A stretch of 64,000 bases of DNA. Source: Bacteroidia bacterium. GTDB lineage: Bacteria > Bacteroidota > Bacteroidia > Chitinophagales > Saprospiraceae. The notes under the pieces are model-generated. The model worked only from the letters and a program-made list of their open reading frames with translations, was not told the origin of the DNA and made no database searches. This document shows positions 6,875-29,041 of the stretch, one piece after another. Location: assembly GCA_030433135.1 (NCBI GenBank), contig JAUILF010000001.1:2891-66890 (forward strand), read 5' to 3'. The translations under genes were made by a program, and so were the position numbers. The number at the start of each line of letters is the position of its first letter. Position 1 is the stretch's first letter.

Positions 6875-7165
6875 TACCGTGCGGCGGATAGTCACTGTAG
6901 TGATCCCCTCCCAGTGCCGGTTTTTTGAAATGCAAAATTTAGGCTATTTCCTAACAATTTATTAGCATTCTTAGAGAAATTGATGTGGGACTCACTCTCT
7001 GTTCGATTCTCGAGCGCAACAAGGCCTACGTTCTCCACATTGCCTTTGCCAGACTCCTGTACCATAGGCTACCCGCCGAACGTCCAGATGTCTCACTCCA
7101 GCTGCGGAATCCTATCTTTTGTCTTCTTTGAGCCGATGCCTTGAGTGCGGATGGCATAGGACCTC
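6875..7165. repeat. Copy A of a 150-300-nt repeat family (copies A-D), directly 5' of the trypsin-like remnant
   Basis: It aligns by eye along its length with 22135-22430 and 21001-21330 and partly with 20036-20190. Shared core ctcactccagctgcggaa lies at 7092-7109. Hairpin ATGCC 7136-7140 / GGCAT 7153-7157. Confidence 0.7.
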
Positions 7166-9405: not shown

Positions 9406-10015
9406 TCACTGACTTTTCGGAGTGGCCTCAGCTATTCTACCATCAATGTATTCCAGATGCCTTTTAATCTTCTTGTGATTGAAATCATTCTTTAGACTAT
9501 TTTGCCCTCGTATTTTCATGGAGTCCACTGCCAGTGTTTCCCCCGCAACTAACTTCCAGTCCTTCAGCATCCTAACAAAGTACTTAGGGGCTTTTTCTAT
9601 TGGCAGGGCCATTATTAGATCGAAAATAATTAATGGTATATTGTGATGGTCTCAGACCTTTCAGAAGCCACATGACCTCTACGTCAATCTTGCAGGCCTC
9701 TGACAACTTTAAACTTGATCGGATTCGCTTACGATATCCGTACAACACAAACTTACATAGATCACTTGGATGATAGGGTATGTTTCCTTCCTTATTCAAC
9801 TCCATATTCATGAAGCCAAAATCTCCCAAAGACATGGAATCAACGAATAAATCAACAATTCTAGCCCAGCTATCAGCAGCTACCATCTCCTCCATTGAGG
9901 TCACAAACATTTGGTTGCGATCTTGCCCATCTTGATAATGCATGAATGGATGGTTTATGATGCTAAAAGATTTTTGAACTTGTGCTGGAGCCTGTGAACT
10001 CCAAACTAACAGCAT
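9406..10015 (-). mobile_element. IS1182-family transposase N-terminal fragment (frameshifted, interrupted)
   Basis: ORF 9584-10015 reads YQDGQDRNQMFVTSMEEMVAADSWARIVDLFVDSMSLGDFGF..GNIPYHPSDLCKFVLYGYRKRIRSSLKLSEACKIDVEVMWLLKGLRPSQYTINYFR, which is the IS1182 N-terminal pattern. It continues in another frame in ORF 9406-9612 (LVAGETLAVDSMKIRGQNS..RHLEYIDGRI) and then stops at the neighbouring IS. Confidence 0.55.
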
Positions 10016-10149
10016 AGCAAATGTTACTTTAGTGAATATTTTCTTAAGACTTCACCTTTAAAAAGTCAACATTGTGTCCAACGTACACCATAAAGTTTCG
10101 GCTGACCGGATGGGAAGCTGGACATCTCATGGGCTGTTGCGCTTAGTCT

Positions 10150-15992: not shown

Positions 15993-18900
15993 TTATCTAT
16001 CTTGGAGCCTATCTCTAATTTTTTCCAAAACCTCCAACCATGCAGAGTCAGTATCTTTGTGCGCCGTGATAGGTTTGCCATCTTTTGGAATTACCTGAAA
16101 GGTGTTAAGAGGTGGTTGTTGCCATAGACATGGACGAACGATTACCGGCATGATGACTGCCTTCCCTTCATTATGGCGCTCGACGGAGCGTTTGAGTTCT
16201 ACCTCCTTGATGAACTTGGATGCTAAAAAATCAGTAGACACCAAAAATATAATGAACTCCGAATGCTCCATTGCATCATTGATCTCTTTATGCCAATCTG
16301 ATCCGGGTTTAATTTGGCGATCATCCCAAACTTTTAAGTCGATGCTATATTGAAGAGAGTTTAGCCAGGACTGAAGTTCCTCTTTGTATTGCTCATCTTC
16401 ATGGGCATAGGAAATAAATATTTTAGCCTTATAAATATCTTTAACATTTCTTCCTAAAACTTCCGCTATAGAAATATTACGATTACACTGAGTACATGTA
16501 ACCGATTTCTGTCCTTGCTCTTCTAACGCCAACACTTTTTCTTCAACGAATATGTAATTACAATCTTTCACTGGGCAATATCGGATAACTTCAACGACAA
16601 GCCGATCATTGACCTCTCTAAAGATTTCATCTAACCAATGCTTCCTAAATGCATCTGCTTCCGCACCGACAATTTCCACCCGAATTTCCCTCCTGTGAGA
16701 GATGGCCTCGATCTTCGCGAAAACATTGTCTTTGTTGATAAGAATGCCCGTACGCCACCAGTTATTTCTCTCAGCATATTTGTTTAGCTTCACTATAAGG
16801 CGAGCAATAATTCCATTATGCAAAAAATCATATTTGTAACCATATTTGATTGATTGATTACTATCCCACTCGAATTCAGGCTTTTGATCATTCAAAAATT
16901 GAGGAACTATAAATATATCCTTCTCATCGGCTAGCTGAAAACATATTTCAAAGTTTCGCATGAGCTCCAGGAATATTTGAATTTCCCGCTCACTTCTGAA
17001 TCTAAAGTCTTCTTTGTATCCTTCCTTTTCCTCCTCTTTCATATTAACTGTCAGATCAGTCATTGTGAACTCCCCATGTCGTGCCTTAATCTGTTCATTC
17101 AAGAACCGATAAATGATTCTAGTCGTCTTCCGCGGGTTAAGGATAACCATTTCTTTCAAAATGGTATTATTGGGAAAATGGATGATCACTCCAATATCCG
17201 TAAGGAACCTGCTTAGGGTTCCAGCATTTTGCTCTGATATATCATGCTCAAGACAGATTTCCAAAAACTTATCATACTTGAGGTAGTGCAAGTCCTGACT
17301 CAACTCCACCAGTATATTTCTGACAGCCAGCCAACCTGCACCAAGATCGTATCCGATCAAATCCTTCAACTTCGGTGCCATCTGAAATTGCACACCAATA
17401 CTCTGTTTTAAAACATCGATATTCCAACTCTTGGCAGCACTCACCGAAAGAGTTTCTTTAACATTCCAATCCTCATTTTCTTTCAAAGTGGTCAGGTCAT
17501 ATCCCTTGATGGAAGGATCTTCCATTTTATTTTGAACTACCAAAACCGGACTATGTTGACTGAGGTGGCTAACATTATCCAACCAATAATTGAAAACGAA
17601 ATTCTGTTCCTTTTCAGGATATTCCTCAGCATCGGATTGCGTTTCTGAATCCCACACCAATATGTACAATGCCCGGTTAGTCAGGAAGAATCGATGCGTG
17701 TTATGATAAATTTCCTGTCCACCGAAATCCCAAATATTCACATTGACTTCCCGTCCATCATCCAAGCGTATCTGCCACTTCTTGATCCGAATCCCATGGG
17801 TCGATTTTTCATTCGGATCATATTGATCCTTGACCAAACGTTTTGAAAGAGAAGTTTTTCCAACACGACCATTTCCAACAAATATCAGTTTGGCTTCATT
17901 AATTCGGGAAGCAGAACCTTCTTTTTCGAGGTGTTCCTTCCTTGCATGAGCAGACTTTTCGAAGATCAACAATTTTGAATTGTCAATATAGTCGCTATAT
18001 GCCTTGACCGTATTTTCTTCCTGCGTTCGTTCCCAAAGTGCTTGATCTTCAGCTTCAAATCGATTAAAAATTGCCTCAACTTCATCAAAATACTTACCAT
18101 CTGGAAATTGGCTTCTGTAGCTATCAATTAAATTAATTTCTTCATTTGATTTTATTCTTTGAAAAAGTTCATCTTCCTCGGTCCTTAGTCTCAAATCGTT
18201 TATCGATTTCATTGCCTCCTGACGATACGTGCCGAGTGTGGTATTATCTAAATACTCTTGGTAATTCTTAATGCTATCTGTGCTCAGGGCGTTTTGCCAA
18301 AGCCTTTCTTCTGCTAAAAACTGATCAGAATCATCTTCCACATTTTCCTTGATCAGATCATCTCCAGACTCCTCGCGAAGTCTTTGAATATCTGACAATT
18401 CAATATTTATACTTTCAAGAATCTTACTTTTTTCAGCAATAGAAGATATATCGAGGTATTTCCTGCGGAGCGATTCTATTGTGGTTATTTTTTCATTGAT
18501 CTTTAGAACGACATCCTGAATATCATCAGGTCCAGATCTCTTAGAAGGTTCCTCTTTAAGTAAAAAGCCACTTTTGAAATCAACAGTATTTAATTCATCA
18601 ATTAGATCTAGAAGTGCTGAATTGATTTGGTTGCGCGCAATGGAGTAGTCCTGCCGTGAGATTCGCCCTTCCCTATTGTTACTTTCATTACGATCAAACC
18701 GATTGTTCAATAATCTGTATTGATTGAAAAAATCTGAATTTACATCTAAAACCCTTCCTAATTCAGTAAATAGAGATTGAATTCTTCCCTTTGAAATAAA
18801 TTCGCGGAACTGACTTCTTACTGGTGCCATATACGCCGTTGCGTTTGATGAGGAAGTATCTTCAGTAGGCTCTGAAGAAACGGACTTTGAAGACCCTTTG

Positions 18901-20190: not shown

Positions 20191-20201
20191 TCTTCGGCAC
20201 A

Positions 20202-20907
20202 TTACTGGCTGAATCGCTCCACATTGGCCCCCTGAAATAAGTATTCCTTTGGTAGATAGACATCGGGTAGAATAGTCTGATTCCTTAGTCTTTCGTTGTT
20301 TTCCAAATCGCAGCCCTTCAGATCTTTCTTATACATAACTTGATGGTCTTTATCCATTGAATTTAAAAACTATAGACCTTCCAGCTTCTAACAAAGAAAC
20401 GAGATTATATGCTTCCAGAAGTTCCCTGGTCAACTTCGAGGCCAAGTTGGGATTACAGTAGAAAAAAGTTATTACAAAATGGATGTAGGTCTTGATGGTA
20501 CACAAATTACAGTGCTTCTGTTCCATCCAGTGAGTCTGAATGGGTTTTTTGGTCTCTGCCAGAATGGCACTTTCGATTTGCTTTCCCTGGCTACTGGGGT
20601 TCCCTTGAAGCTTACTTTCATCCAGTAAGGTGACCTTCCGGCAGAGATGTTTCAATTGCGGACTTACCGTCAATTCAGAAATATAAAGGTATCTCCCGGG
20701 TCTCGACCACCTTTCCATATCCAATTGTAGCAAATGATCTTTTGATCGTTGATTATAAGGAAAATCCAAGGTCAACGGACTCTGGCCTGGGTGTACAAAT
20801 CTTTCCAATGCGATGGCCGGCAACTCCATGTTGGTAGGATGTGTCAATCTAAATATAGTAAAAACGCAACAAAAACTTACATCCAGATACGCTATTATCC
20901 ATTCCAT
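20202..20907 (-). CDS. Hypothetical protein, possibly frameshifted (185-aa ORF 20350-20907 plus overlapping 52-aa ORF 20202-20357); weak LRR-like periodicity
   Basis: The 185-aa ORF ends ..FKFNG* and overlaps the ATG of a 52-aa ORF (MDKDHQVMYKKDLKGCDLENNERLRNQTILPDVYL...) in the sequence aATGGATAA. There is no clear family motif. Repeat copy B precedes it. Confidence 0.3.
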
Positions 20908-21000
20908 TTCAATTGTAAAACGTTGTCACTTTCGATCACAAGACAAGGATATCTGAACGTTTTGGATGTTGTCCCTTCCCACTCACAGTTTAGCCTGGTC

Positions 21001-21330
21001 ATACCGATTTGTCGCGGAAGTTAGGATCTTGGTGGGTCACAGGTAAGTTTACCGGAATGTGTTATGTCTTGAAAAAGGCCAATCATCCTACTGTAAGTGA
21101 GCGATTGATTCAGGAATATAGAGAGTCCTTGCTTGGGGAAGATCACTATGAGGGCTCACCAGTTCGTTCGATACTCTTGCGCAGAAAGGCCCACATTTTC
21201 CACTTTGCCTCTGGCAATTTCCCCGACCGTAGGCTATCCACCGAACATCCAGATGCCTCACTCCAGGTGCGAAATTAGAACTTTCTTTATAAACCCGATG
21301 CTTTAAAGGCATGGAATCTGAACGACCGGC
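21001..21330. repeat. Copy B of the A-D repeat family, 5' of ORF 20350-20907
   Basis: Core ctcactccaggtgcgaaa at 21257-21274. Hairpin ATGC 21298-21301 / GCAT 21309-21312 with a short loop. Confidence 0.65.
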
Positions 21331-21388
21331 TACCAACCGTACTTAGTGCATGCGGAATGTGGATAGCCACCTGTTCTTGCAGACAGAC

Positions 21389-22120
21389 TTACTTTCCTTT
21401 CCCTGATACTAGATAGTCCAGTGCTGCTTCTACTCTTTCAATATTTTTCATCAATGGAACATCTGAGTTTCGTTTTAAAGCGTTCAGTATCTTTCTTGTC
21501 CTCTCAGCATCACCGATTCGCAGTTTTTGTGAATAAACCAATTCTGCAATGGCATTTGTAACACATCCTTTTGTGAAATTACTATTTATTTCTCCGGTTG
21601 ACGATTCAATTAAGTCTAAATCGCCAAATTTGGGAATTTCCTGAATTCTCTTACTTAACCCACAAATTATCCCATCAGAGATCAAAGGTAAAAATTCTTT
21701 TAATGCATCTGGGTACTGAATAATATTTTCCGAAATGCTTTTCGCAATCTCATTTTTCATCCTCAACCTTGAGGTTGTTGCTTCAATATCGTCACACCTT
21801 GAAAATTTCTCATCAAGCTCCCTAATTTTTTCAATTAAATCAAAATTTGATTTCGCCTTGATTTTTGATTCATCTAATTGATCCAATAGCCCAATGACAC
21901 CCAGTAACCCCTCATTTATTGAATTCAACTCGCTTTTATATTCCCTATTACTTATAACACCTTTCATTTTATCTGCCTTCAAAGCATTATATCTTGAAGA
22001 AATTAGGATTATTTCCTTGCTAAAGCTCAAGAGGAATTTATTTGAAATATCTAATAATATCTTTATTGCCTCTTCTGATTTTCCTTTTAAAATTAGGACT
22101 TTTAGTACTTCCTTCTTCAT
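21389..22120 (-). CDS. Stand-alone EAD11-like (effector-associated domain) protein, 243 aa
   Basis: I place the start at ATG 22118-22120 (MKKEVLKVLILKGKSEEAIKILLDISNK...). The track ORF extends to 22360, but that extension lies inside repeat copy C. The N-terminal roughly 85 aa (LILKGKSEEAI..IILISSRYNALKADKMKGVISNREYKSELNSINEGLLGVIGLLDQL) matches the EAD11-type helical hairpin and aligns with residues 402-478 of the ROCO protein. The C-terminal roughly 150 aa are unassigned and helical. Confidence 0.75.
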   Translation of the reverse strand: MKKEVLKVLILKGKSEEAIKILLDISNKFLLSFSKEIILISSRYNALKADKMKGVISNREYKSELNSINEGLLGVIGLLDQLDESKIKAKSNFDLIEKIRELDEKFSRCDDIEATTSRLRMKNEIAKSISENIIQYPDALKEFLPLISDGIICGLSKRIQEIPKFGDLDLIESSTGEINSNFTKGCVTNAIAELVYSQKLRIGDAERTRKILNALKRNSDVPLMKNIERVEAALDYLVSGKGK

Positions 22121-22134
22121 ATGATTTTCTTGCT

Positions 22135-22430
22135 TGCCTGCAACGTGAGGCCAGTTGTCTGTGATTGATCCCCACAGTGCCGGCTCTTTTGATATGCAAA
22201 ACCTATTAGGATCGGTCAACAATTTACAAACATTCTGGGATAGATCACTACGGGACTTGGTCGCCATTCGATTCCCCTGCGCTCCAGGGCTCCGGTTTCC
22301 ACATTGCTTTTGCCAGATTCCTGGACCGTAGACAACCCGCTGCACGTTCAGATGCCTCACTCCAGCTGCGGAACCCTATCTTTAGTCTTCTTTGAGCCGA
22401 CGCTCTGAGTGCAGATGGCGTCTGAACGGT
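22135..22430. repeat. Copy C of the A-D repeat family, 5' of the EAD11-like gene
   Basis: Core ctcactccagctgcggaa at 22356-22373. Hairpin GACGC 22399-22403 / GCGTC 22418-22422. Confidence 0.7.
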
Positions 22431-22481: not shown

Positions 22482-23149
22482 TTGACTAAATCGCCTATCG
22501 GCGATGGCTGGCTTTATTGCAGATAATTTCGGAACTCAAGAGTTTTCAACCACAAAAATTCAGAGTTATGAAAATGCACGAAAAAAAAGCCAGACCATCA
22601 TCGACAGAGCAAAGCTTGAAGTTAGTGGTTTTCAGGCGATGTATGAGCGATTGGACCAGAAAATTGTTTTGGGTGGATTATCTAAGTCTACTCTTAACAA
22701 CTGCGGTAGGTGTCTAGCCAAAATCAGTATATTTTGGCATTCCTGCACACTTACTGGAAGAAGAACAGATCAATGGTTATTTGCAGTCTATTCTAACCAG
22801 CCACAAGCCATCCAGGAGCTACTTTAAACATACTGTCTATAGCCTGAGAATTCTATTCTGGGTATTTGGTAGAGAAGATAAAGCGTTGCGTTTACCAGGT
22901 TGGAAGCGACATAGCCCTTTGCCAGTGGTCTTGCGTCAGAGGAGTGCAAACGACTATTCAAGTCAGGCAATGTGCGAAAGCATCGGGTTATGTTGAGTTT
23001 GATCTATTCTGCTAGACTGAGGTGTAAAGAAGTACGTAATCTAAAGTGGAGTGATCTGGATTTTGATCGTAGGGTCATACATATTCTAAAGATCAAGTAC
23101 AATGAAGACAGGTATGTGCCTTTGAGTGATGTGATGGCTAAAGGTCTAC
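22482..23149 (+). pseudogene. Truncated, multiply frameshifted copy of the tyrosine recombinase found intact-ish at 25797-26695
   Basis: Nucleotide homology to 25711-26380 starts at ttga(c/a)ctaaatcgcctatcggcgatggctggc. The protein is split over ORFs 22504-22827, 22781-22996 and 22972-23172. Homology ends at 23149, exactly at the stop codon of the convergent caspase-TIR gene. Confidence 0.7.
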
Positions 23150-24393
23150 TATCTGGTGGGAGGAATGGTTGACTCAGGATCCTGTAATTTCTCAGTTGGA
23201 TCCTTTACTGGCTTATTCGCAATGGATGTGGGTTTTCTAATACGTAATTTACGGATATGATCGATCAGGTTATCAATTTCGGTCTCTGTTGTGGTCATAT
23301 CGAAAATAACGCGGTTAATGTGACCGAATTTGTTTTCGAACATACCTGGCAGCCTGATTTCCTCAACCATGATCGGCAGAATAGGAATTCCATGTGCGTC
23401 TGCAGTTTCTATCTCCCACATTGCAACTTTGGAATAAATAATCTCTGCATCGATCACGAAGATCATGACCCGAGCGTTTTTGATCACTCGCTCCAACTGA
23501 TACTTCCAGTCATCACCAATGCGAAGTTTTTCTGTATCGACAAATGTCGTTATCCCCTTGTCACGGAGTTTCTCGGACAATTGATTGACCAATACTTTCT
23601 GAGTCCTTCTATAACTTATAAATACGGGTTTCGGAGATTCAAAGATGCTTATATCCCTGGATACGTTCCACTCCCATTTTTGCGGGTCGCGTGGTGTTAA
23701 TGGGTCTTCTTTCACTTCGTCAATGATATAGCTGAATAATTCAGAAAATGTAATTCTACCGTCTCGGTCAGCATCGATATAGTCGCTGGTCAAACCTGTG
23801 ACGATAATATTGGTGAAGACACCACCCTTCTCGTTCTCCATGGTGGTTTCGTCCTCATCGCATGCGGTCAAAGCATATAGCCCTTTTGGAACACCCCGTA
23901 CATTATTGAAAAATGCACCGCTGTGACAGCAGTCAGCAACCACTATGAAGTTTCGACAAGCGGATTTTCTGAATTGAGACAAAATAAACTCTGTCTCCAG
24001 ACATGTGGCATCAAGGTACTTAGAATCCGAATCAGAGAAAATCAGGTATAAGGATCGATGCTCACCCAACAAACCATGGCCAGAGTAATAAAAGAAGATG
24101 ACGTCATTTTCTTTGGCCTTCCGGCATACCTCGGAAATTTGCTTTCGCGCCTCAACGAACTGTGGGTTAAGCAGTGTCGACACGACAAAATCACTTCGGT
24201 CCCTGTCATTAAGAAGGTCGCTAAAGCGCTGCACGTCAACAGAAACCGTGTTGAGCCTTCCGATTTGGGGGTCATCAAATTCTTCGACACCGATCAGCAG
24301 TGCATATTTATTCTGTACCGGTACGCTCGGTTTGTCTTTTAAGGCTAAACCCATGACGTTCGAATTTGTACTTAAATTAGCCAAAACCCACAT
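23149..24393 (-). CDS. Caspase (peptidase C14-like) - TIR fusion protein, 414 aa
   Basis: The caspase dyad motifs are intact: VIFFYYSGHG and FIVVADCCHSG. The C-terminal TIR reads PVFISYRRTQKVLVNQLSEKLRDKGITTFVDTEKLRIGDDW..ARVMIFVIDAEIIYSKVAMWEIE. An alternative start lies at Met14 (24354). Confidence 0.85.
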   Translation of the reverse strand: MWVLANLSTNSNVMGLALKDKPSVPVQNKYALLIGVEEFDDPQIGRLNTVSVDVQRFSDLLNDRDRSDFVVSTLLNPQFVEARKQISEVCRKAKENDVIFFYYSGHGLLGEHRSLYLIFSDSDSKYLDATCLETEFILSQFRKSACRNFIVVADCCHSGAFFNNVRGVPKGLYALTACDEDETTMENEKGGVFTNIIVTGLTSDYIDADRDGRITFSELFSYIIDEVKEDPLTPRDPQKWEWNVSRDISIFESPKPVFISYRRTQKVLVNQLSEKLRDKGITTFVDTEKLRIGDDWKYQLERVIKNARVMIFVIDAEIIYSKVAMWEIETADAHGIPILPIMVEEIRLPGMFENKFGHINRVIFDMTTTETEIDNLIDHIRKLRIRKPTSIANKPVKDPTEKLQDPESTIPPTR

Positions 24394-25048: not shown

Positions 25049-25636
25049 TTATGGCTTTACTTTTGTTTTATTCGAAATCGGTTGGGACCTTTTGTCAAAC
25101 GCCTGATCAATATAGAATTCAGGATTAACAGTGAAGTCGCCCCATTTTACTAGCACACAATATCTATCATCTTCACTCCAAGAACATTTACCAAATGCAG
25201 GGATATAGTAATTGTGGCTAAACTCTCTTATAACAGTTGAATCGATTATTCCAACATAGTTGTGGGTTCCACCACATGCAGGGCAATTATACGAACCTTG
25301 ATAAATGGAATCGTACATGGAAGGAAGTACTATTCCAAGAATACCATTTTTTGTATTATTTACACCATTGTAAAGAGATGCCTGAAGCTCTTTCTTAATG
25401 TATCTTTGTTCGTGAGACCCAAGATTCTCCGAACTTCTTGAACCTATTAAAAAAATTGTAACTGTTGAGTTAGATAAATAGTCTCCTCTAATTTTTCGCA
25501 TAATGTAATCATCATCCCAAGAGATGATTGGTTCATCTAAGGATTTGTCAATCATATCAATGTCCATTTCATCACGAATATGATTTTTATAGGCAATGCC
25601 TTCTGTTTTAAAACTTATGAAGCATTTGTGTGCCAT
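25049..25636 (-). CDS. ThsB-like / DUF1863-type TIR-like domain protein, 195 aa
   Basis: KCFISFKTEGIAYKNHI...DDDYIMRKIRGDYLSNSTVTIFLIGSRSSEN..HEQRYIKKELQASL matches the MTH538/ThsB TIR-like pattern (cFISF..eD......i......D.s..........I...I..ssV.ivLIG..T.....V..EI..sl). Confidence 0.8.
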   Translation of the reverse strand: MAHKCFISFKTEGIAYKNHIRDEMDIDMIDKSLDEPIISWDDDYIMRKIRGDYLSNSTVTIFLIGSRSSENLGSHEQRYIKKELQASLYNGVNNTKNGILGIVLPSMYDSIYQGSYNCPACGGTHNYVGIIDSTVIREFSHNYYIPAFGKCSWSEDDRYCVLVKWGDFTVNPEFYIDQAFDKRSQPISNKTKVKP

Positions 25637-25796
25637 AGTGTTCGTTTTAGGTTGCTGACAACAGTTTGGCTATGCGCAGTGTCCCGAAGGGCATTGCGTA
25701 TAGGTTTTGTTGAACTAAATCGCCTATCGGCGATGGCTGGCTTTATTGCAGATAATTTCGGAACTCAAGAGTTTTCAACCACAAAAATTCAGAGTT

Positions 25797-26695
25797 ATGA
25801 AAAATGCAAGAAGAAAAAGCCAGACCATCATCGACAAAGCAAAGCTTGAAGTTAGCGGTTTTCAAGCGATGTATGAGCGATTGGAACAGAAAGTTGTTTT
25901 GGGTGGATTATCCGAGTCTACCCTGAACAACTATGGCAGGTGTATAGCCAAGATCAGTGTACATTTTGGTATTCCTGCACACTTACTGGAGGAAGAACAG
26001 ATCAATGGTTATTTGCAGTCTCTTCTAACCAGCCACCAGCCATCCAGGAGCTACTTTAAACATACCGTCTATGGGCTGAGATTTCTATTCCGGGTATTTG
26101 GTAGAGAAGATAAAGCGTTGCGTTTACCTAGTTTGAAGCGACATAGCCCTTTGCCAGTGGTCTTGAGTAAGATGGAGTGCAAACGACTATTCAAGTCAGG
26201 CAATGTGCTAAAGCATCGGGTTATGTTGAGTTTGATTTATTCTGCTGGACTGAGGTGTAAAGAAGTGCGTAATCTAAAGTGGAGTGATCTGGATTTTGAT
26301 CGTAAGGTCATACATATTCGAAAGACTAAGTACAATAAAGACAGGTATGTCCCTTTGAGTGATGTGATGGTTAAAGGTCTACAAAAGTATAGAGAGGCCT
26401 GTAATCCAAAGGATTATGTCTTCAATGGCAAGGCCATTGGCAGTAAACTGAGTGCAAGAGGAGTCCAATGGGCGATCAAGCAAGCTGTGAAGCGCTCTGG
26501 CATCAAAAAGGATATTACTGTGCATACCTTCGTCACTCATACGCCACTCATTTACTGGAGTTTGGCGTGGACATAGACACCGTACGGAAACTGTTGGGAC
26601 ATGCTCATTTAAGTACTACTATTGTCTATCTACATGTTGCCAGATTAGAGAGTACGGAAGCATTTAGTCCGATAGATCGATTATACCCGGTCTAG
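25797..26695 (+). pseudogene. Tyrosine recombinase (phage-integrase family) of the kind paired with IS91-family transposases; one frameshift
   Basis: The likely start is ATG 25797 (MKNARRKSQTIIDKAK). ORF 25746-26576 ends ..[15 protein letters not shown], while ORF 26468-26695 in another frame carries the expected continuation [37 protein letters not shown] (R-H-R-Y box II). The frame break is near 26530. Confidence 0.8.
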
Positions 26696-26698
26696 CAA

Positions 26699-27679
26699 GT
26701 GATCAAGTCCGATGCCATTGGCCGGATCATATCCGGTCAGTTGCCCCTTATATTGAGCAGGTTAAATAGTCACCAGATAAGACACCTGCAAGCCATACGT
26801 TCATGTCGTACACCGGCATTGGGTGGGCATATTTATATCTGTAGCCATTGTCATAAAACCCACAAGCGTTATCATTCTTGCCGCAACCGTCATTGTCCAC
26901 AATGTCAGAAGACTCAGAAGTATCAGTGGATCCAAGCTCAGGAAGCAAAAGTTCTACCCTGTCCCTATTTTCATCTGGTCTTTACTATTCCCCATCAGCT
27001 TAATGACCTCAACCTGGCATTTTCACGGCCCCTGTATTCTATTTTGTTTCGTGCTGCCTGGGAAACATTGGATTCGTTTGGGTGGAACCACAAATATCTG
27101 GGTGCCCAACTTGGTGCCACCATGATACTGCATACATGGGGTTCCAATTTATCCTACCATCCTCATTTACACTGTATCGTTCCAGGTGGAAGAGTAACGA
27201 TAAAAGGCAAGTGGCGTCAAGCCGAAACGAAAGGTAAGTACCTGTTTCCAGCCAAAGCAATGAGCATAGTGTTTCGAGGTAAATACATCTATTATCTAAA
27301 AGAATTCATGGAAGTCTCTGGAATGTGTCTCGATTCACTTCAAGATCAACTCTATACGCACAAGTGGACTGTTTATGCAAAACGCGCTCCCAAGACTCAC
27401 CATAATCTCATTCATTACCTGGCAAGGTATACACACCAAATTGCCATATCACCAAAACGTATTTCCTCTTTCGACAATCAATCTGTGACTTTTCGCCTAT
27501 ACCGACTATTGCCATCAGAATCAGAAAAAAGTAATGCAGCTATCTGCATGGGAATTTGTACGACGTTTTGCTCAGCATATTTTACACCATGGCTTTACTA
27601 CAATTCGAACATTATGGAAGCCTTAGCTCTCAATGGCAAAAAGATCTTTACCCTAACATATCTCCACCTTAGTCTTTAG
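26699..27679 (+). mobile_element. IS91-family (Y2 rolling-circle) transposase gene, C-terminally frameshifted/degenerate
   Basis: GTG start 26699, 3 nt after the recombinase stop. The Zn-binding N-terminus is CRTPALGGHIYICSHCHKTHKRYHSCRNRHCPQCQ. The core is PYFHLVFTIP, ILHTWGSNLSYHPHLHCIVPGG and YLARYTHQIAIS. After about 27520 the expected ..EFVRRFAQHIL..GF..IR.. continues in a different frame. Confidence 0.75.
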
Positions 27680-27793: not shown

Positions 27794-29041
27794 TTATTGA
27801 ATTACACCTTGCCATTTCTTTCTTAGTTCAATGTTTTTTTCGATTATTGACTCCCTTAATTGTATAAATGATTCGTCAAGAAGTAGTATGTTCTTTGCGA
27901 AGAGAGAGTTGTAGTTAATCAGAATCTTACTGACACGTCCTCTGTTTCTTAACCAAGAATCGAATCCTAAATAGGATTTGTCCTTTGTCAGTTCATTTAA
28001 TTGATACAAAATGTACTTTTCAATTATTCTGTCACATTGAGCTATATTATCTATGTACTTAATTGAAATAGAATCAGGAATATTTAGATTTTGTGCCTTT
28101 ATCAACTCTAATATTGCATTGTTCGACTGTTTCAGAGAATCAGACAAACTGCCTATCTCTTTGTCAAGTCTTATCGAAAGATCCAAATCAGATGGCAAAA
28201 CTTTCATGGATGCTGCGGATACTTTTGTCGCTATATCCTTCAGTAATTTTGTTTGATTCTCAAATTCGGTACTGATTGATGAATTAAAATTGACAAATTC
28301 ATTATGTGAAAATAATATTTTTTCCCTTTGAAACGTCGCAGTAATGATCATCAGAACTGTAACTGAAAAGGCAAGGGTTCTTAATGTATTTCTAGATCTA
28401 TCTATAACCCGTTCAATTGGACTTTGCAAAAGGTTGTCTCCTTTTAGTTTACTCAATCTGTATTTTTTTATCTGATCAGGGAATACATTATAAATCAGAA
28501 ACCATAATATTGGACTCAGCGAAAGCCCTACGAGAATGATATCAAGAAGCCTGTTGAATTTACTGAAGCCTAACTGAATCGTTAAATATAGAATTGAAAC
28601 CGCAGAAATCAAGGGCACTAAAAGAAGAGTTCTGAATTCGGACGATGACGATTTTTTTAACCGTTTTAGTATTAATTCTACGAGAGGATCGGAGCCAAGA
28701 TTGTAATTCCAAAAGGTTCTTTTATCGATTGCATTAGGCAAAGGACTTTCATCTAATTTAACTGGAATGATTCCCTCTTTACTTGAATTCCCGGTCAAAG
28801 CAGCATCAAGTTCAATCTTTGTATATTCAGTTAAATAGTTTTCAGAATGGATGATAACGACAATTGTTGAATTACTATATATGGTTTGAAGTTTACTTTT
28901 AAGTTCAGTTCCCAGTGTTTCCTCTTGTTTGTGAATGTAGTGGTACACTTTAAGATTCCTGTTCTCAAGTCTTGTATAGACTTCTTTAGCATATAAGTAG
29001 TCATCTGTTGAAAATGATATCGCTACATCAAATGTTTTCAT
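27794..29041 (-). CDS. TIR - transmembrane - coiled-coil protein, 415 aa
   Basis: The N-terminal TIR is FDVAISFSTDDYLYAKEVYTRLENRNLKVYHY..TIVVIIHSENYLTEYTKIELD. There are three hydrophobic helices (LLLVPLISAVSILYLTIQLGF, IILVGLSLSPILWFLIYNVF, LRTLAFSVTVLMIITATF), followed by about 170 helical aa. Confidence 0.8.
   Translation of the reverse strand: MKTFDVAISFSTDDYLYAKEVYTRLENRNLKVYHYIHKQEETLGTELKSKLQTIYSNSTIVVIIHSENYLTEYTKIELDAALTGNSSKEGIIPVKLDESPLPNAIDKRTFWNYNLGSDPLVELILKRLKKSSSSEFRTLLLVPLISAVSILYLTIQLGFSKFNRLLDIILVGLSLSPILWFLIYNVFPDQIKKYRLSKLKGDNLLQSPIERVIDRSRNTLRTLAFSVTVLMIITATFQREKILFSHNEFVNFNSSISTEFENQTKLLKDIATKVSAASMKVLPSDLDLSIRLDKEIGSLSDSLKQSNNAILELIKAQNLNIPDSISIKYIDNIAQCDRIIEKYILYQLNELTKDKSYLGFDSWLRNRGRVSKILINYNSLFAKNILLLDESFIQLRESIIEKNIELRKKWQGVIQ

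Follow-up and report, generated by a model that had tools for sequence, protein, structure and literature searches.

We found that two neighbouring genes in a 64,000-nucleotide (nt) stretch of DNA from a filamentous Saprospiraceae bacterium (assembly of 6.3 Mb, 91% complete; the whole stretch is called the window here) both encode an effector-associated domain (EAD) of the EAD11 class. One is a ROCO (AP-GTPase) gene for a protein of 1342 amino acids (aa) at 15993..20021 (-), identified from the list of open reading frames (ORFs), its translation and its Pfam matches. The other, at 21389..22120 (-), encodes a 243-aa protein that joins EAD11 to a helical repeat, as its translation and its orthologues indicate. 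EADs have been described as small, helical, non-catalytic domains for which homotypic binding is proposed, with one copy residing on a core NTPase and others on effectors that are encoded nearby or elsewhere in the genome (Kaur, Burroughs, Iyer and Aravind, eLife 2020, PMC7159879), and they are the proposed bacterial counterparts of Death-fold adaptors. We consider it somewhat probable that the small protein uses its EAD11 to dock on other proteins with this domain in the same cell. Among these, the ROCO protein is the nearest candidate and the sole one with an NTPase, and what the small protein would contribute is a solenoid for binding or regulation, not an enzyme.

The original prediction on this DNA had proposed matching EAD11-like modules at ROCO residues 402-478 (nt 18588-18818) and at residues 1-85 of the 243-aa protein (nt 21866-22120), and both these coordinates and the residues that it quoted are right. 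The Pfam profile of EAD11, PF19964, matches ROCO residues 403-477 (18591..18815 (-); E 3e-14, 53.2 bits) and residues 2-79 of the small protein (21884..22117 (-); E 1.7e-14, 54.0 bits), in each case at about twice the curated cut-off of 26 bits. BLASTP aligns the two copies directly with 25% identity (E 2e-4), and in hhalign a profile built from orthologues of the small protein only aligns to ROCO 403-481 with a probability of 81% (E 1.2e-5), which bears out the profile-profile similarity between the segments. In an alignment with 30 other EAD11 domains, both copies keep the LIAxG turn and the motifs LSxR, G.IS and N.I...LL. Judged by these sequence signatures, both segments are genuine EAD11 domains; a profile network published earlier retrieved no class but EAD11 itself from EAD11 (supplementary file 1 of PMC8195603). 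Only four EAD11 matches occur in the whole genome, and they form two tight pairs, ROCO with the 243-aa protein and EAD11-TIR with SIR2-EAD11; the co-location is therefore not random.

A complex model of the two modules, computed for residues 392-488 of ROCO and 1-88 of its small neighbour with one alignment for each chain, reached ipSAE values of 0.69, 0.70 and 0.69 in three runs, compared with 0.00 for the best control, and thereby offers the predicted interface that the original prediction had looked to. Of 80 solved complexes, 58 attain the mark set for this score, as do 2 of 110 mismatched pairs (approximate counts, own alignments used). At least 95% of the contacts are common to the runs, with a predicted local distance difference test (pLDDT) score of 83 for the partner. 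In the model the interface is asymmetric, with the helix-1 turn (LIAxG) and helix 4 of one copy packed on helices 3 and 4 (LSxRY) of the other; R406, 409-414 and 456-471 take part on the ROCO side and 23, 35-49 and 56-67 on the side of the small protein. These contacts coincide with the conserved motifs of the EAD11 family, and the model supports an EAD11-EAD11 contact in general. In the models both modules appear as the small, all-helical, non-catalytic domain that is typical of EAD11, the ROCO module at pLDDT 86 in the complex runs.

The 243-aa gene starts at the ATG at 22120, and eight full-length relatives (240-252 aa) begin at the same Met; a longer GTG frame to 22360 is unsupported, because the orthologues start at the Met of 22120. 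Its AlphaFold2 model, built with a 38-sequence alignment, is all-helical and comprises twelve helices at a mean pLDDT of 92.9 and a predicted template modelling score of 0.84. Four of them (3-11, 15-28, 34-52 and 58-80; pLDDT above 90) make up the EAD11 half, which is terminal in this protein (residues 2-79). The C-terminal domain (residues 92-243; 21392..21847 (-)) is confidently modelled as an all-helical, HEAT/ARM-like alpha-solenoid of eight helices. For residues 91-243, the best VIA-align superpositions are with HEAT/ARM solenoids, at Z 8.8-9.9 over 87-140 residues, whereas helical-repeat matches stand out in this method only from Z roughly 13. They include the PP2A A subunit (3c5w_A; Z 9.9, root-mean-square deviation 3.2, 125 residues) and the archaeal HEAT-like protein TON_1937 (4l7m; Z 9.0, root-mean-square deviation 4.7, 140 residues); PH0542 (2db0) is also among the HEAT/ARM structures matched.

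With these proteins the modelled domain appears to share the stacked helical hairpins. It differs from them in that the Pfam profiles of HEAT and ARM repeats have no match, even at E up to 1, in any of the 38 family members and that its Z values stay below the specific level; Foldseek against the PDB returned nothing below E 0.1 (best E 0.12), and a profile search of PDB sequences nothing below E 0.06. Since the Z values are sub-specific and a HEAT/ARM profile match is lacking, we call the domain HEAT/ARM-like without counting it among the members of that class. The proposed fold search of this half thus yielded mid-range helical-repeat matches in one method and no significant match in the other. 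Residues 85-243 match no Pfam, NCBIfam or PADLOC family.

The original prediction regarded this C-terminal half as the cargo, effector or regulator that is brought to the ROCO protein. Its orthologues share the motifs RLRMK, GxICG, DLD, SNFxKG, GDD and NIERVE. Across the 38 members of the wider family, however, only K122, L212 and L234 are nearly invariant, which makes an enzyme unlikely, and no conserved catalytic constellation is present. Of the roles named, that of an enzyme-like effector therefore falls away, and a role as adaptor or regulator stands as a reading: the 243-aa protein has the appearance of an adaptor, sensor or regulator and not of an enzyme that kills.

The family that it defines, an EAD11 joined to a solenoid, is rare, with only 35 clusters among 1.84 billion representatives in an exhaustive search, and is found mostly in Saprospiraceae. 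A profile search of contigs with a narrower alignment found homologues in two Saprospiraceae metagenome-assembled genomes, and full-length relatives occur in 3 of the 100 other genomes of the bacterial family that were searched. The same solenoid is re-used elsewhere in the protein family behind a YLATT module with three transmembrane segments and behind a calcineurin-like phosphoesterase, and in forms of about 440 aa it lies between EAD11 and a further 4-helix bundle. Longer members (P0014, P0018, P0022, P0023, P0025, P0026 and P0017) carry a third domain of roughly 190 aa with the conserved motif LFNRGTFRxEPCIxxCxTQRW, and some longer members also end in CxxCxC. The 4-helix-bundle model of the third domain in the 440-aa members has a pLDDT of 79.7, with fold matches at noise level (Z up to 8.9); it says nothing on the 243-aa form, which is without this domain.

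A cargo without enzymatic function also suits an inhibitory cap or decoy. The small protein would then cover the EAD11 surface of ROCO, or cap EAD11 polymers, and keep the TIR switch off; its part would resemble that of the CARD-only and Pyrin-only proteins of animals, and it would not deliver a function. The asymmetry of the modelled interface fits such a cap, as one bound copy could block further growth, and so do the EAD11-only mini-proteins of relatives, such as a 76-aa gene in genome G078, and the TIR effector that ROCO already owns, so that no added one is needed. A conserved solenoid of 150 residues, however, exceeds the need of a cap, and its further use with the YLATT membrane module, the calcineurin-like phosphoesterase and the 4-helix bundle suggests a function of its own. 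We regard the cap as unlikely.

Small helical modules that tie NTPase-switch sensors to effectors by same-domain contacts are also known from the Death-fold adaptors and the CARD-only and Pyrin-only regulators of animal inflammasomes. The asymmetric contact, here modelled only, recalls Death-fold filaments, an analogy that has been drawn for EADs before (PMC8195603); the Death fold has six helices, in contrast to the four of the EAD11 model. A bolder proposal, which we put forward as speculative and rather doubtful, is that EAD11 forms a head-to-tail polymer via its asymmetric interface. The internal EAD11 of ROCO would nucleate a mixed, higher-order assembly into which every EAD11 protein of the cell is drawn (solenoid protein, EAD11-TIR and SIR2-EAD11), and the solenoid family would be its undescribed trans-acting sensor or gatekeeper. 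If true, bacteria would have in this assembly a counterpart to the Death-fold signalosomes.

The ROCO protein has all the hallmarks of its class, i.e. an N-terminal LRR, Roc, COR and a variable effector or EAD. The LRR (residues about 1-160; LRR_8, E 5.4e-12) is followed by a degenerate caspase-like region (residues about 175-370), EAD11 and a helical linker without family (residues 478-706); neither this linker nor the caspase-like region has a Pfam match, even at E 5. The nucleotide switch (16455..17891 (-), residues 711-1189) consists of Roc (residues 711-833; PF08477, E 3.3e-30), COR-A (896-1043; PF16095, E 2.2e-28), for which ROCO is the sole match in the whole genome, and COR-B (1056-1189; PF25497, E 4.3e-19). 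The built-in effector is a C-terminal TIR domain (16089..16421 (-), residues 1201-1311; TIR_2, PF13676, E 7.9e-18), which PADLOC assigns to the ThsB type (ThsB1, E 6.7e-36). The N-lobe of the caspase-like region (19260..19500 (-), residues about 175-250) resembles, weakly, the caspase-TIR protein encoded at 23149-24393 (BLASTP, E 2e-4), and the NCBIfam model caspase_w_EACC1 matches the region weakly as well (E 0.0072). At the position of the catalytic His it has Gln (YFSGQ, compared with YYSGH in the neighbouring caspase-TIR), and from its residues the insert is catalytically dead.

In the proposed mechanism, ROCO is a conflict-system protein in which the LRR senses, Roc-COR forms the GTP switch and the TIR is the built-in effector, and its internal EAD11 would serve as a docking port. 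The 243-aa protein would most likely dock, EAD11 to EAD11, onto ROCO, EAD11-TIR or SIR2-EAD11, and its solenoid may provide an adaptor, bait or regulator surface. The data show the identity of the domains, the fold class, the clustering in the genome and the recurrence of EAD11-ROCO fusions; the physical binding, ROCO as the partner and the regulatory role are inferred from them. One could object that the similarity is real but the internal EAD11 of ROCO, which lies 230 residues ahead of the Roc GTPase and beside the dead caspase-like region, is a fusion remnant without binding, and that the 243-aa gene is functionally unrelated. This copy is indeed divergent and without close relatives in word-based searches of long and short proteins, and the relative searches found no close relative of the N-terminal half of ROCO either. 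The score at twice the Pfam cut-off, the retained family motifs and the confident modelled contacts, which fall exactly on these motifs, nevertheless make a functionless relic highly improbable.

Which partner the small protein serves is a separate question, and several observations weigh against ROCO. Adjacent EAD copies tend to be each other's closest relatives (PMC7159879), and the identities found here run counter to this tendency: the two copies in the window are only 22.6% identical in pairwise comparison, whereas the copy on the small protein has a higher identity to the one in SIR2-EAD11 (33%) and to the one on a ROCO protein of genome G096 (36.7%). The window pair is no more similar to each other than either is to unrelated copies. 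EADs are typically terminal (PMC8195603), unlike the EAD11 of ROCO, which is internal (403-477 of 1342). The complex model cannot show which EAD11 is the cognate partner, because close cousins of true partners pass such tests too. The genes are separated by 1.37 kb with repeat copies and a doubtful ORF between them, and the 243-aa gene adjoins a degraded tyrosine-recombinase gene, so that the adjacency may be an accident of the island. Orthologues of the small protein (47-73% identity) stand among housekeeping genes in four contexts, in none of which (0 of 4) a ROCO, STAND or other NTPase gene adjoins them. Genome G021, which is 100% complete, encodes about 30 copies of EAD11 and a full-length homologue of the small protein at 31% identity, and no COR-A domain was found in it. 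A dedicated pairing with ROCO, as the original prediction implied, is thus not conserved.

These observations fit co-location without partnership, which we hold to be a possible, though less likely, explanation. Both genes would simply have been gathered in a mobile defence island, and the small protein would serve other EAD11 proteins, for instance those of the EAD11-TIR/SIR2-EAD11/nSTAND1 locus, or whichever ones are present in a given genome. The mobile-element flanks agree with it (degraded recombinase, integrase and IS91-type transposase, repeat copies), as do the 12-32 EAD11 genes per relative, which imply a many-to-many network. Docking on the EAD11 proteins of the cell, with ROCO as the nearest candidate, remains our favoured reading. 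Against mere co-location, the assembly has only four EAD11 genes, in two pairs within a few kb, ROCO is its only NTPase with EAD11, and the complex model passes. Moreover, G096 has an EAD11-ROCO gene with adjoining EAD11 genes.

The second EAD11 locus of the genome lies on contig C564 (7862-15126 (-)) and encodes CHAT, EAD11-TIR (277 aa), SIR2_2-EAD11 (387 aa) and an nSTAND1-WD40 NTPase (1148 aa). This NTPase is without EAD11, and the adaptor is common to the two effector proteins only. In a metagenomic relative, an SIR2_2 protein of 435 aa with a weak TIR-like tail and then nSTAND1-WD40 are encoded at 15989-20726, and the 243-aa gene has its orthologue there at a distance of about 5 kb. Its SIR2 half matches SIR2-EAD11 (E 1e-22) and its TIR half matches EAD11-TIR at a non-significant E of 0.14; the idea that it is a fused (Rosetta-stone) counterpart of the split SIR2-EAD11 and EAD11-TIR is suggestive only.

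Fusions of EAD11 with ROCO proteins recur in the bacterial family. EAD11 was found in 58 of 101 sampled Saprospiraceae genomes, with up to 30 copies (E 1e-6), and Roc-COR proteins in 39 of them. Both occur in one ORF, verified with Pfam, in G096:C18 (EAD11-Roc-COR-CHAT) and G008:C29 (LRR-Roc-COR-EAD11), and shared coordinates point to further cases in G099:C149, G029:C165, G063:C27, G063:C42, G026:C17 and G057:C19. The closest parallel to the window is the G096 locus (C18, 6933-11410 (-)), where the last of three consecutive EAD11 genes encodes EAD11-Roc-COR-A-COR-B-CHAT (772 aa). The two preceding genes on the same strand encode proteins of 276 aa with a C-terminal and 361 aa with an N-terminal EAD11; their cargoes are unrelated, and the cargo domains match no Pfam family.

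EAD11 also appears in very short and very long frames of relatives. The 76-aa EAD11-only gene of G078 (PF19964, E 1.8e-6) lies at 9664-9894 (+), directly upstream of the orthologue at 10001-10723, which has no other related neighbour, and further EAD11 matches stand in frames of only about 93-105 aa in G003, G004 and G040. A 2539-aa open frame with four tandem EAD11 matches (G021:C192:77315-79327 (-)) may encode a multi-port EAD11 scaffold.

The overall design of the system is already published. EAD11 belongs to the published class of proposed homotypic adaptors, and ROCO proteins are a published type of EAD-bearing core (PMC7159879, PMC8195603), in agreement with what the original prediction had drawn on. 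AP-GTPase conflict proteins have been described with TIR, caspase or 'different EADs' (Kaur, Iyer, Burroughs and Aravind, eLife 2021, PMC8195603, Figure 6D), and 11 paralogues were named for Haliscomenobacter hydrossis (PMC8195603). The source data of that study list LRR+AP-GTPase+COR+EAD11 with 38 term occurrences, for example Haliscomenobacter hydrossis AEE54482.1, and one LRR+AP-GTPase+COR+EAD11+TIR from a Saprospiraceae bacterium (NUO01599.1); no row has the order EAD11+AP-GTPase.

The ROCO protein of the window resembles these published systems in uniting LRR, Roc-COR, TIR and EAD11 in one polypeptide, and its host belongs to the same bacterial family. A further likeness is that the genomes have several paralogues and numerous EAD11 genes. 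It differs in that its EAD11 is internal, before the GTPase and after a dead caspase-like region. The general EAD principle is likewise recognizable, with one EAD11 copy on a core NTPase and further copies on the 243-aa protein, EAD11-TIR and SIR2-EAD11. Three features depart from it: a helical repeat without enzymatic function is fused to the second copy, where the usual cargo is an effector or signalling domain, mostly enzymatic; the adjacent copies are not mutual closest relatives; and the neighbourhood is not conserved. New here are the internal EAD11 ahead of the GTPase, the dead caspase-like insert and the partner from an undescribed solenoid family; otherwise the locus is one more example of the published scheme. 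We came across no publication in which EAD binding had been put to an experimental test, and the locus offers a compact test case, with one ROCO switch that has its own TIR, one small, soluble partner with a confident fold model, and four EAD11 proteins, compared with up to about 30 in relatives.

The original prediction also placed the same repeat element before both genes. This is correct for the 243-aa gene, which has a copy 46-299 nt upstream (22166..22419); the best-preserved further copy, at window positions 6901-7155, aligns with it at 77% identity over 259 nt. The interval immediately before the ROCO start (20060..20200) shows no more than a degenerate, questionable resemblance, which consists of a 38-nt seed at 76% (20133-20170 compared with 21267-21304) and a weak multiple alignment beyond it; blastn at E 1e-3 gave no repeat match in this interval. 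A core copy in the spacer (21167..21274) aligns with 22267-22373 over 108 nt (73%) and with window 7001-7110 over 110 nt (78%); downstream of it follow a doubtful ORF of 185 aa and, after about 1.15 kb, the start of ROCO. No copies were found elsewhere in the assembly outside this contig. A role of the repeat as a structured RNA or hairpin site was considered and rejected, with folding z-scores of -0.1, +1.4, -0.9 and +1.4 (-0.1 for the copy at 22166-22419), and Rfam has no match to it. The 185-aa ORF between the two genes (20350..20907 (-)) has no Pfam family and no other tblastn match in the genome, and it is probably not a real gene; scans of the spacer for sigma-70 promoters and terminators gave no more sites than shuffled sequence.

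Both genes are surrounded by a dense island of conflict genes with traces of mobile elements. The degraded tyrosine-recombinase gene (22517..23148 (+)) is divergent from the 243-aa gene, is split over two frames and abuts the stop of the caspase-TIR gene. In tblastn, the integrase encoded at 25746-26576 matches it in overlapping pieces in two frames, with 58% over 207 aa and 62% over 140 aa. This intact integrase and then an IS91-type Y2 transposase follow 3.6 kb further along (25746-27679 (+)). Some IS91-family elements carry a tyrosine-recombinase gene of this kind, and the remnant may be an insertion-sequence scar rather than an integron integrase. The caspase-TIR gene (23149-24393 (-)) is an island neighbour, and other island genes on the same strand lie at 25049-25636, 27794-29041 and 10720-13851; together they comprise the types caspase-TIR, ThsB-like TIR, TIR protein whose C-terminal part is unassigned, and DUF4062-STAND NTPase.

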